Part shown: in pieces, positions 1,101 through 12,812 of the stretch | How positions within the stretch are numbered: position 1 is the first letter of the stretch | How the letters are laid out: each line of letters opens with the position of its first letter | NCBI GenBank assembly: GCA_016840035.1 | Contig: JAEOTC010000052.1 | Coordinates: 1-13,812 of the forward strand | Length of the DNA stretch: 13,812 nucleotides | From: Candidatus Hodarchaeota archaeon | GTDB lineage: Archaea; Asgardarchaeota; Heimdallarchaeia; Hodarchaeales; Hodarchaeaceae | Direction: 5' to 3' | Notes under the pieces: generated by a model | Told to the model about the DNA's origin: nothing | The model's database searches: none | Seen by the model: only the letters and a program-made list of their open reading frames with translations | Made by a program: the position numbers and the translations under genes

Positions 1101-2873
1101 TTATCTTTTTGATTTACGAATCACTGGAATTGCCATGACGAGGGCTAAGAGGCCAAAAATAGTTTCAAACCCAGGAGTAAGGGTTGGAGTAGTAGTATCA
1201 TCTTTTCCAGGATCAGTTGTATCGTCGATGATACCGACTTTTACACTGTACCTTGCCTCTAACTCACCTTTATTGGTGGAGGCGATGATTCTGAAAGTAT
1301 ATTCACCCTTGATGGGAATGGTCAAATTGAAGTGGACATCGAAGAAACTGTCAGCGGGGAATGTACTATTCACGGGAACGACCTCAATAATGGTACCATT
1401 TAACCATAATAATTTAACTTTTGAAATGTGAAGATCGTCATCTGCTCCTGAATAAACCTCTGCTTTGATATTGAAGGTTTCATTAACATCTACATTATCA
1501 GGACCATAAATGGAAATCGATGGACCAGATTCAGTAACATACCAATCACAGCTTGTGTACCATTCACTTCGGATATCATCATAAAGCTCGAAGTGGACAA
1601 TATACTTGCCAACCTGGGTAAAAGTATAATTTAAATCGTATTCCCAGACCTCATAGGCATTAATGGGAACATCAACCTCCAGTAATAGCTCGGTATACCC
1701 TGTTGGATCTTCCATACGGATCTTGATGATGACACTGGGCATATCATGACCAAAGTTGCTTTGAGCTTTGAAGTGCATCCATCGGTTTTCACCGACTTTA
1801 GCCTCGTAGTCTTGGTCAATATATAATTCATAACCATCCATCGATCCATCATCGACTTGCCACCAGCACCAGAATTCCCAAACTTGACCTGTATCATGAT
1901 CAGTGACTAACAACGCCACATCATAATATCCAGGTTCAGAGAAAAAGTATTCAACATAATTGGACCAAGAATCACCCGGAGTGAGCCATACAGTCTCATT
2001 TATTAACATATCTTCGCCATCGGACCACATTATTAAAGCATAAATTGAGATCGTTTTATTGATTGAAAAGCGATTCTCAATCACAAAGTCCATCCAACCA
2101 TGTTCACCAACCATTCGATGATAATCCTGATAAATCCATAATGCAAAATAATCTGGGTCTTCATAGACTTCCCACCAGCAGTGAGATTCCCAATAGCTAA
2201 ATCCATCAGAAACTGAGAATAATACCTCATAGTATCCTGGAATCGTGAACTGATAGGATACATCATCATACCAATAATCAAAAGCCATTAGGAATACTGT
2301 ACGATTTTCATAAAGAAGAATTTCTTGTGAATCAGGAGTTTTTAACACAACTTTGGCGGTAACAGACATGTTCGCATTGAAATGTGATTGGATATCGAAA
2401 GCCATATACCCTATATCACCCACGGAAGCATAATTGTCTTGAGAAATCCAGAGATCCATCCAAGGCTCTACGACATCCCACCAGCAATCAGCTTTCCACT
2501 CTTGACCGTATTCATCATAAACGAAGAGAGCAACATCGTAAAATCCATTTTGCTCAAATAGTATACTTACTTCGTCATAAAAGTACCCATAGGCCGAAAG
2601 ATTGGCTGGACCACTATAAAGTGTCACAAGTTGATCTTCGGGAGTATTTACGATCAAGGAAATATTTACATTCATACTCATATTATAATAGGAAACAATG
2701 TCAAATCCCATTACTCCTACCTCGCCTACTGCTGCATGAGTACTTTGGTAGATATTTACTTCTAAATATCCTTCAGGTACAACATCAGCAGCAACAAGAG
2801 TAGGATTGAATGATATGAATGAAATAGCAATTCCAAATACAAGAATTGCTAATAAAAACTTATGGTGTTTCAT
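1101..2873 (-). CDS. Cell-surface (glyco)protein with four ~102-aa Trp/Tyr-rich beta-sandwich repeats, a fifth divergent domain and a PGF-CTERM-type anchor
   Basis: N-terminal signal peptide (MKHHKFLLAILVFGIAISF...LVAA). Repeats follow IxQxxxAxVGxxGxMxF...GYYxV...W...CWWxV. About 12 N-x-S/T sequons. C-terminus has a Thr-rich linker, TPGF (PGF at 1175-1167), a hydrophobic helix and RKSKR. The Ig/CARDB-like fold is inferred from the strand pattern. Confidence 0.88.
   Translation of the reverse strand: MKHHKFLLAILVFGIAISFISFNPTLVAADVVPEGYLEVNIYQSTHAAVGEVGVMGFDIVSYYNMSMNVNISLIVNTPEDQLVTLYSGPANLSAYGYFYDEVSILFEQNGFYDVALFVYDEYGQEWKADCWWDVVEPWMDLWISQDNYASVGDIGYMAFDIQSHFNANMSVTAKVVLKTPDSQEILLYENRTVFLMAFDYWYDDVSYQFTIPGYYEVLFSVSDGFSYWESHCWWEVYEDPDYFALWIYQDYHRMVGEHGWMDFVIENRFSINKTISIYALIMWSDGEDMLINETVWLTPGDSWSNYVEYFFSEPGYYDVALLVTDHDTGQVWEFWCWWQVDDGSMDGYELYIDQDYEAKVGENRWMHFKAQSNFGHDMPSVIIKIRMEDPTGYTELLLEVDVPINAYEVWEYDLNYTFTQVGKYIVHFELYDDIRSEWYTSCDWYVTESGPSISIYGPDNVDVNETFNIKAEVYSGADDDLHISKVKLLWLNGTIIEVVPVNSTFPADSFFDVHFNLTIPIKGEYTFRIIASTNKGELEARYSVKVGIIDDTTDPGKDDTTTPTLTPGFETIFGLLALVMAIPVIRKSKR
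1536..2768 (-). repeat. Four tandem ~102-aa protein repeats (aa ~36-134, 138-236, 242-340, 347-446)
   Basis: Repeat starts: NIYQSTHAAVGE, WISQDNYASVGD, WIYQDYHRMVGE, YIDQDYEAKVGE. Repeat ends: DCWWDV, HCWWEV, WCWWQV, SCDWYV. Confidence 0.9.
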
Positions 2874-11456: not shown

Positions 11457-12812
11457 ATGAAATGTAATTTTAAATCACAAAAACTAGTTATTTTCTATTT
11501 AGTGCTATTTATGGTGTTCCATACAACAAATCTAGTCGATTCCACTATCTCTTTACCTACAACGTACTTTCCTATTGATGACTGGCGTAGAGCTACTCTG
11601 GATGAATTTGGAATCAATTCTACACGTATAGGTATGATGAACAATACCATTGTTACCCAAGATATTGGGGTTGATAGTATTCATATCATTCGCCACGGAT
11701 ATTTAGTTTATGAACGGTATTTCGAGTATTATAACCATTCTAACCTTCATCATCTTATGTCTGTTACTAAAAGTGTTACTAGTATTCTTGTTGGGATTGC
11801 TCAAGCAGAGGGATTTATTTCAGATCTTGATGAACCAGTTTTAGAAATATTTACAGATAGGAATTTTTCTAATGTTGATTCACGAAAAGAAGCATTAACT
11901 ATTCGCCATCTTCTGCAAATGCGTTCTGGTCTGGAGTGGAATAGCCAGGATGTTCCATTTTTAATTGGAACGATTGACAAACATGATTATGATCTTGTGA
12001 CCAATATATCTAATTGGTGGGATTTGTTTCCCAGTAATCCTGTGATAGATTGGAATCTAATGATCCATAGTCCAGATTGGATTCAATTCGTATTGGATAA
12101 ACCCATGGTTGCTGATCCTGGAACCGAGTTTTATTATAATTCTGGATGCTCCCATCTTCTTTCGGCCATTATTGCCAAAAAAACTGGAATGAATACAGAA
12201 CGGTTTGCTAAACAATATTTGTTTGATCCACTGAACATCAATAACTATACCTGGCAAAATGATTCTCAAAGTCTTAGCATGGGTGGTTTTGGATTATGGT
12301 TACAACCTAATGACATGGCTAAGATCGGGTATTTATGCTTGAACAACGGTCAATGGAATGGGGAAGAGATTATCCCTCCCGATTGGATTTTTGATTCTAC
12401 TCAAGATTATAGTCCTGGAAGTGGGTATGGTTACCAGTGGTGGACATTTTATGATAGTGATCATGAAAGTAGTTATTACAAAGCAATTGGTTTTGGGGGC
12501 CAATATATTATTGTCATTCCCGATGCTAGCGTAGTTGTTGTTCTTACATCGAGTGAATTTCATAATTCCAATCCTAATGCTTTGTTCGTTTCCTATATCT
12601 TACACTCCATCGATTTTGACTTCACGTATACGGAACCTACTACTTCTACTCCAGTGTCATCAACCTCAACCACTTCTGAAGTATCAACCGATGAACCATC
12701 TAGTATTACAGATACTTCACTACCTTCAACTTCTCCACAGACTACAAGTTTCATTAGTATTACTGCAATAATAGGATTCGTATTACTAATAGTCGTAAAG
12801 AAAAAGGAGTAG
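11457..12812 (+). CDS. Surface-anchored serine hydrolase, beta-lactamase class C / CubicO / NylB-like family
   Basis: Catalytic SxxK (SVTK, aa 102-105, nt 11760-11771), LTIRHLLQMRSGL, PGTEFYYNS (catalytic Tyr region), LQPNDMAKIGYL, YGYQWW, AIGFGGQ. Signal peptide, Ser/Thr-rich stalk, TTSF, hydrophobic helix, KKKE. Confidence 0.92.
   Translation: MKCNFKSQKLVIFYLVLFMVFHTTNLVDSTISLPTTYFPIDDWRRATLDEFGINSTRIGMMNNTIVTQDIGVDSIHIIRHGYLVYERYFEYYNHSNLHHLMSVTKSVTSILVGIAQAEGFISDLDEPVLEIFTDRNFSNVDSRKEALTIRHLLQMRSGLEWNSQDVPFLIGTIDKHDYDLVTNISNWWDLFPSNPVIDWNLMIHSPDWIQFVLDKPMVADPGTEFYYNSGCSHLLSAIIAKKTGMNTERFAKQYLFDPLNINNYTWQNDSQSLSMGGFGLWLQPNDMAKIGYLCLNNGQWNGEEIIPPDWIFDSTQDYSPGSGYGYQWWTFYDSDHESSYYKAIGFGGQYIIVIPDASVVVVLTSSEFHNSNPNALFVSYILHSIDFDFTYTEPTTSTPVSSTSTTSEVSTDEPSSITDTSLPSTSPQTTSFISITAIIGFVLLIVVKKKE

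Follow-up and report, generated by a model that had tools for sequence, protein, structure and literature searches.

A 13,812-nucleotide stretch of DNA from a Candidatus Hodarchaeota archaeon (assembly GCA_016840035.1, contig JAEOTC010000052.1), hereafter the window, carries on its minus strand the gene for a 590-residue protein, P0001. P0001 is a secreted surface protein, probably with a PGF-CTERM anchor, from a member of the Heimdallarchaeia, and contains four tandem repeats, each with a glutamine where the first β-strand ends and a cysteine in the middle of the last. We consider it probable that these two residues make up a buried polar pair, without a covalent bond, and that this pair is the mark of a new PKD/CARDB-like stalk repeat of Heimdallarchaeia. 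A first-pass annotation of the window had proposed that the same pair may form an autocatalytic Cys-Gln thioester.

P0001 contains four cysteines in total (130, 232, 336 and 442), one in each repeat of ~103 residues, and each has a glutamine partner (43, 145, 249 and 354) at a spacing of 87, 87, 87 and 88 residues, respectively. The first-pass annotation had reported this arrangement, and all of it is found in the translation, as is the claim that the fifth domain lacks both residues: residues 450–548 hold neither Cys nor Gln. The CWWxV motif that it described around each cysteine is present as CWW in repeats 1–3, but repeat 4 reads CDW. The residues preceding the four cysteines are Asp, His, Trp and Ser. 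In the 28 repeats of seven orthologues, Gln is found in 28/28 and Cys in 27/28, the exception being P0006, where Asn replaces Cys130 and Gln43 is retained; as judged from this alignment, such conservation is far beyond chance. In a broader set of 162 repeats from 45 proteins, the best-conserved columns (repeat numbering) are G78 (92%), Q11 (89%), Y80 (88%), F74 (86%) and C98 (86%), which places the Gln and Cys columns second and fifth, and the family signature is Q...F...GxYxV...W-x3-C-W-W. By column conservation, Q11 and C98 are signature residues, yet their conservation does not exceed that of the Gly, Tyr and Phe columns, which are plainly structural. P0007, the most distant orthologue, has two extra adjacent cysteines in repeat 1 (residues 45–46, QDCC), two residues past the conserved Gln, which the other six orthologues lack.

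Repeat 3 (P0001 residues 239–343) was modelled by AlphaFold2 with an alignment of 28 repeats. The model has a predicted local distance difference test score (pLDDT) of 96.8 and is an all-β sandwich without helix, consisting of eight strands (residues 5–11, 14–16, 20–29, 35–45, 48–59, 64–72, 77–87 and 93–103 of the repeat). All four repeats are likewise eight-stranded and free of helices in a model of the full-length protein. Gln is the last residue of strand A in these models, or directly follows it in repeat 1, and Cys occupies position 6 of 11 in the last strand (G) of every repeat, in agreement with the first-pass placement of Gln on the first strand and Cys on the last. Since the conserved residues alternate along strand A (L7, I9, Q11) and strand G (W94, C98, W100, V102), the Gln and Cys side chains would both lie on the core face. 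The earlier description of a secreted archaeal surface protein built of Ig-like repeats is also supported.

Among the solved-structure matches listed, the repeat 3 model is closest to the FnIII-type domain of the Vibrio cholerae protein RbmA (4be6; Z 14.1) and the CARDB domain of PF1109 from Pyrococcus furiosus (3idu; Z 13.1), with root-mean-square deviations (rmsd) of 1.5–2.6 Å over about 101 residues and sequence identities of 11–14%. The same lists contain transglutaminase C-terminal domains and macroglobulin (MG) domains of complement and alpha-2-macroglobulin (A2M), with Z about 12. RbmA is a matrix scaffold and CARDB a cell-adhesion-related module; we know of no conserved Gln/Cys pair in either the CARDB or the RbmA FnIII family, and P0001 has no match to Pfam CARDB (PF07705) at E ≤ 1. 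No thioester domain (TED), ester-bond or CnaA/CnaB entry is found among the best 50 Foldseek and best 50 VIA-align PDB matches listed, and similarity at lower ranks is possible. The neighbours of the model in the ESM Atlas include CARDB/DUF11 clusters, with template modelling (TM) scores of 0.82–0.85.

The best shape match in the ESM Atlas to the repeat 3 model (window 1845–2159), ahead of CARDB/DUF11, is to the N-terminal domains of eukaryotic TRAPPC13 (TM 0.87, rmsd of 1.6 Å over 104 residues). This resemblance is probably generic Ig-fold similarity, though it is curious for an Asgard archaeon.

By sequence, the repeat is linked to a known family through a single F-strand motif, GxYxVxLxVxD, which it shares with PKD domains (PF00801/PF18911). 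These are similarly ~100-residue β-sandwich repeats of archaeal and bacterial surface proteins, and classical members have a WxFGDG region. PF00801 matches P0001 at 24.8 bits (cut-off 23.5) and PF18911 at 26.6 bits (cut-off 27), both covering residues 300–327 alone, in one repeat. In profile searches, the PKD domains of collagenase ColH and hundreds of other PKD proteins align to this motif; a profile search of PDB sequences returned the ColH PKD motif and otherwise chance matches only. About 27 residues align in all, whereas the Gln strand, the W-x3-C-W-W strand and the ~18% aromatic content fall outside the PKD profile. The repeat is a new sequence family within a very common fold class.

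A search of 1.84 billion representative sequences with the repeat profile returned 1698 proteins, most of which match through the PKD motif alone; the best 150 of these 1698 include about 45 proteins with true full-length repeats, from 1 to 9 per protein. The family comprises at least 231 proteins. Across 301 genomes of the phylum, matches were obtained in three families of the window's class (15/20, 15/29 and 3/11), together with one match at E about 1e-3 in a fourth family, whereas the remaining families searched gave none. Judged by these matches, the repeat is an uncatalogued family restricted to one lineage, the Heimdallarchaeia.

The genome of the window encodes two paralogues of P0001. 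One (L003, G000:C264:1000-6000), whose open reading frame contains P0014, has four Gln/Cys repeats. The other, a 652-residue open reading frame with a PGF-type anchor (L002, G000:C177:27500-32500), has three degenerate repeats out of four, with an unalignable first strand and Lys, Gly or Val at position 98; its fourth repeat combines Gln with Ser, and the sole Cys of the protein lies elsewhere. Many paralogues begin with a head of ~190 residues (P0014, P0011, P0023, P0028 and P0008, residues 1 to about 200), which is missing from P0001. The head scores 18–24 bits against Pfam Reelin_subrepeat-B in 5/5 proteins tested, all below the cut-off of 27, and may be a jelly-roll or carbohydrate-binding domain carried on the repeat stalk. 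By analogy, the resulting head-stalk-anchor layout would resemble that of fibrillar adhesins.

Co-variation was analyzed by mutual information (MI-APC) in 186 repeats. The analysis recovers the registers of the sheets (A'–B 15–21, B–E sum 93, C–F sum 127, F–G sum 178) and A'–G contacts (13/14–99), and the F–G register sets G78 opposite W100 and Y80 opposite C98. The Gln/Cys pair, 11–98, ranks fifth of all column pairs. Gln and Cys are therefore probable neighbours, in line with the first-pass annotation, and, as far as sequence can tell, they probably touch in the core of the repeat.

The natural losses of the pair were tabulated in 142 non-orthologous repeats. Both residues are kept in 124 (87%) and both are lost in three; 12 retain Gln with Cys replaced (by Ser, Asn, Asp, Thr, Tyr or Ala), and three retain Cys with Gln replaced (by His, His and Met). 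Joint loss is enriched (odds ratio 10, Fisher p = 0.016). The 12 Gln-bearing repeats without Cys are otherwise normal, with a median of 67.7 bits compared to 71.4 and with 7.4 of 8 signature columns compared to 7.5, and the score of one reaches 100 bits. Cysteine is entirely absent from P0034 and P0057, and P0023 has a single one across four repeats. Thus, Gln has a role independent of Cys, and the domain persists without Cys. The replacements at position 98 are mostly small and polar, not aliphatic, and therefore fit a hydrogen-bond partner of the Gln amide. The first-pass annotation had named co-variation of the two columns as a check on its thioester: the columns do co-vary, but homologues also lose one residue independently of the other, which that annotation had itself named as evidence against the bond. 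With 12 normal repeats that have Gln without Cys, three with Cys without Gln, Cys-free family members and no known thioester signature, the proposed bond is not supported.

We favor a non-covalent explanation of these observations. In each repeat, the Gln lies at the kink between strands A and A', and the Cys in the middle of strand G, flanked by core-facing Trp residues. The amide of the Gln would meet the hydrogen-bonding needs of the sandwich's open edge, with position 98 acting as a "small polar" slot that is usually filled by Cys and sometimes by Ser, Asn, Thr or Asp. The pair would then be a signature of folding and stability instead of a reactive bond, and the repeats would serve as a rigid spacer or coat module on the cell surface, in a protein that could be glycosylated. 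Several points weigh against this explanation. Burial and contact are deduced from sequence periodicity and co-variation, and the co-variation comes from only 18 exceptional repeats. The 87% joint retention and the enrichment of double losses are equally predicted by a covalent bond, and the Ser/Thr variants could, in principle, form an ester with Gln. The lack of a conserved His or acid in the repeat is also not decisive, as no residue of TEDs other than the bonded Cys and Gln is universally conserved, and a conserved catalyst besides these two is lacking (PMC6194298).

It is also conceivable, but unlikely, that Gln and Cys each play a structural role of their own without interacting, with Gln capping backbone hydrogen bonds at the A/A' kink and Cys acting as a small residue between Trp rings. 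In antibody variable domains, the buried Gln/Glu at position 6 caps backbone hydrogen bonds in a similar way. The retention of Gln in 12/15 Cys-less repeats, which indicates conservation independent of Cys, and the tight packing around Cys implied by the F–G register would both agree with such roles. However, the 11–98 pair ranks fifth in the co-variation analysis, and the replacements of Cys are mainly Ser, Asn, Asp and Thr, not Ala, Val or Gly, which points to a polar partner.

A covalent link seems to us quite improbable. In this reading, Cys-bearing repeats form an autocatalytic intramolecular Cys-Gln thioester that joins the first and last strands, with an ester in the Ser/Thr variants, and the bond is either a staple of the domain or a latent, force-exposed site of covalent adhesion. 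One Gln and one Cys per repeat at a fixed spacing, kept together in most non-orthologous repeats, would be expected of such a bond, as would the co-variation of the two columns and the core-facing position of both residues, on strands A and G and at similar heights in the sandwich. An aromatic (Trp) core within a surface-anchored stalk protein would suit it as well, and TEDs, in which conservation is universal for the bonded Cys and Gln alone, provide a parallel (PMC6194298). Moreover, cross-linked Ig-like stalks have been predicted in archaea, as DUF11/CLIPPER isopeptides (PMC12617251). Against this stand the independent loss of Cys from the 12 otherwise normal repeats and the entirely Cys-free proteins of the family. 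At least 8/15 Cys-less repeats (with Asn, Asp, Ala, Tyr or Gly) have no nucleophile able to form the bond. In addition, thioesters are considered poor stabilising staples (PMC10619420, discussion).

TEDs (class I/II; Cpa, SfbI and BaTIE) are, like P0001, surface-anchored, with one Cys and one Gln about 90–180 residues apart, and aromatic residues adjoin their bond (PMC6194298, PMC4450167). The TED fold combines a six-stranded β-barrel with a bundle of three helices, and has the motifs [YFL]CΦζ around Cys and TQxxΦW (PMC6194298). In contrast, the P0001 repeat is all-β in the AlphaFold2 models, without a helix, and a regular-expression scan of P0001 found neither motif. TEDs are also single N-terminal warheads, whereas the pair in P0001 is located in tandem stalk repeats and its Cys is dispensable in natural homologues. 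The CGEQ motif, which in complement C3 and A2M lies within a helical thioester domain, is likewise absent from P0001 in a motif scan, and the repeat matches the MG β-sandwich domains of C3, C4 and A2M, not their thioester domain.

Ester-bond and isopeptide stalks share with P0001 a series of tandem Ig-like repeats and partner residues on the first and last strands (PMC10619420, PMC12617251). Such stalks carry Thr-Gln or Lys-Asn/Asp bonds, catalyzed by His/Asp or Glu/Asp. Ester-bond domains of the Cpe0147 type place Thr/Ser on the first and Gln on the last strand, and have an HxDxxDxxQ catalytic motif (PMC10619420); in P0001, Gln is on the first strand, its partner is Cys, and the scan found no HxDxxDxxQ. 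Compared to isopeptide domains (CnaA/CnaB, DUF11/CLIPPER), the repeat family has no conserved Lys or His column (the highest Lys is 12%, and no His exceeds 17%), so that the conserved Lys with Asn/Asp is lacking; the resemblance to DUF11 is by shape alone. The family also has no conserved acid column adjoining Gln or Cys. No publication that we found describes a thioester within the Ig-like repeats of a stalk. A paper on a Mobiluncus adhesin, whose abstract mentions thioesters among the cross-links of "51 Ig-like domains", was considered as a precedent and rejected, since the thioester of this adhesin is in an N-terminal TED and not in the Ig repeats.

It is very improbable that the cysteines are functional thiols, either joined in disulfides between molecules or repeats to build a surface lattice, or used to attach a metal, cofactor or lipid. 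A single Cys in each repeat and an even total of four in P0001 would suit such a role, but the cysteines are mid-strand, on the conserved core-facing side and flanked by Trp, family members have 1 to 9 repeats, odd numbers included, some proteins are Cys-free, and neither a CxxCH motif nor a second ligand column is present. Inter-repeat disulfides in particular were rejected based on the core-facing Cys, the odd repeat numbers and the Cys-free homologues.

If the pair is non-covalent, as we favor, the result is a modest one: it defines an uncatalogued, Heimdallarchaeia-restricted repeat family that builds PGF-CTERM-anchored surface proteins, and this family may aid the annotation of the poorly known cell envelopes of Asgard archaea. 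A thioester, if true, would be without precedent beyond TED and complement-type domains, in Ig-like stalk repeats and in archaea. The repeats would then represent a new, autocatalytically cross-linked kind of Ig-like domain in surface proteins of the Heimdallarchaeia, which of all archaea are most closely related to eukaryotes, and could be put to use in SpyTag-like protein engineering.

The gene for P0001 is the sole long open reading frame under the stretch flagged in the first-pass annotation (1536–2768), which corresponds to residues 36–446. The full-length AlphaFold2 model (pLDDT 77.9) consists of a signal helix, five β-sandwich domains, a disordered linker and a C-terminal transmembrane helix; the helix preceding the first domain (residues 3–19) has low pLDDT. 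The features are listed below.

Features of the P0001 gene and protein (window coordinates; residue numbers refer to P0001)
Feature	Position	Strand	Description	Basis
Whole gene	1101..2873	-	590-residue secreted, C-terminally anchored surface protein P0001	Open reading frame list, translation, orthologue names
Probable Sec signal peptide	2787..2873	-	Residues 1–29; basic N-terminus and hydrophobic helix	Sequence; cleavage site inferred, without prediction tool
Repeat 1	2466..2777	-	Residues 33–136; Gln43 (2745–2747), Cys130 (2484–2486)	Profile match 2466–2774, AlphaFold2
Repeat 2	2160..2465	-	Residues 137–238; Gln145 (2439–2441), Cys232 (2178–2180)	Profile match 2160–2468, AlphaFold2
Repeat 3	1845..2159	-	Residues 239–343; Gln249 (2127–2129), Cys336 (1866–1868)	Modelled alone by AlphaFold2; weak Pfam PKD matches at residues 300–327
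Repeat 4	1527..1844	-	Residues 344–449; Gln354 (1812–1814), Cys442 (1548–1550); motif CDW	Profile match 1530–1838, AlphaFold2
Fifth β-sandwich domain	1230..1526	-	Residues 450–548; membrane-proximal, without Gln or Cys	AlphaFold2 strands within 452–546
Disordered linker	1179..1229	-	Residues 549–565; Asp/Thr/Pro-rich	Sequence; pLDDT about 30
PGF-CTERM-type sorting signal	1104..1178	-	Residues 566–590; PGF, transmembrane helix, basic tail	Sequence, profiles, AlphaFold2 helix 569–588

The fifth domain matches no Pfam family and does not match the repeat profile. The C-terminus falls slightly short of the cut-offs of two profiles, with 17.3 bits for Pfam PGF-CTERM (cut-off 18.8) and 19.6 bits for NCBIfam Heimdall-CTERM (cut-off 24). 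Mature P0001 is acidic (isoelectric point about 4.05) and 17.7% aromatic, and the whole protein contains 12 N-x-S/T sequons. Six full-length orthologues, with 54–72% identity, come from Heimdallarchaeota/Hodarchaeales/Kariarchaeaceae metagenome-assembled genomes, and several carry the NCBI name PGF-CTERM sorting-domain protein. A search for archaeosortase A (TIGR04125) in the genome of the window, which is 87% complete, gave a single match of 24.5 bits (cut-off 75) to a 274-residue open reading frame (L001, G000:C112:38448-41765). The enzyme that processes the PGF-type and Heimdall-type C-termini may be divergent or unassembled.

Two further genes in the window also appear to encode proteins of the cell surface. 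The divergently transcribed neighbour of P0001 (3131–6295, plus strand) encodes a 1054-residue right-handed β-helix (NosD-like) protein with a signal peptide, a Thr/Ser/Pro-rich linker, a C-terminal hydrophobic helix and a KKRKKK tail, but lacking PGF. This is probably another surface protein, one that uses a different sorting signal. The gene at 11457–12812 (plus strand) encodes a protein of the β-lactamase family (serine hydrolase), whose N-terminal signal sequence, Ser/Thr/Pro linker and similar C-terminal helix with a basic tail make it a likely third cell-surface protein in this 14-kb window.

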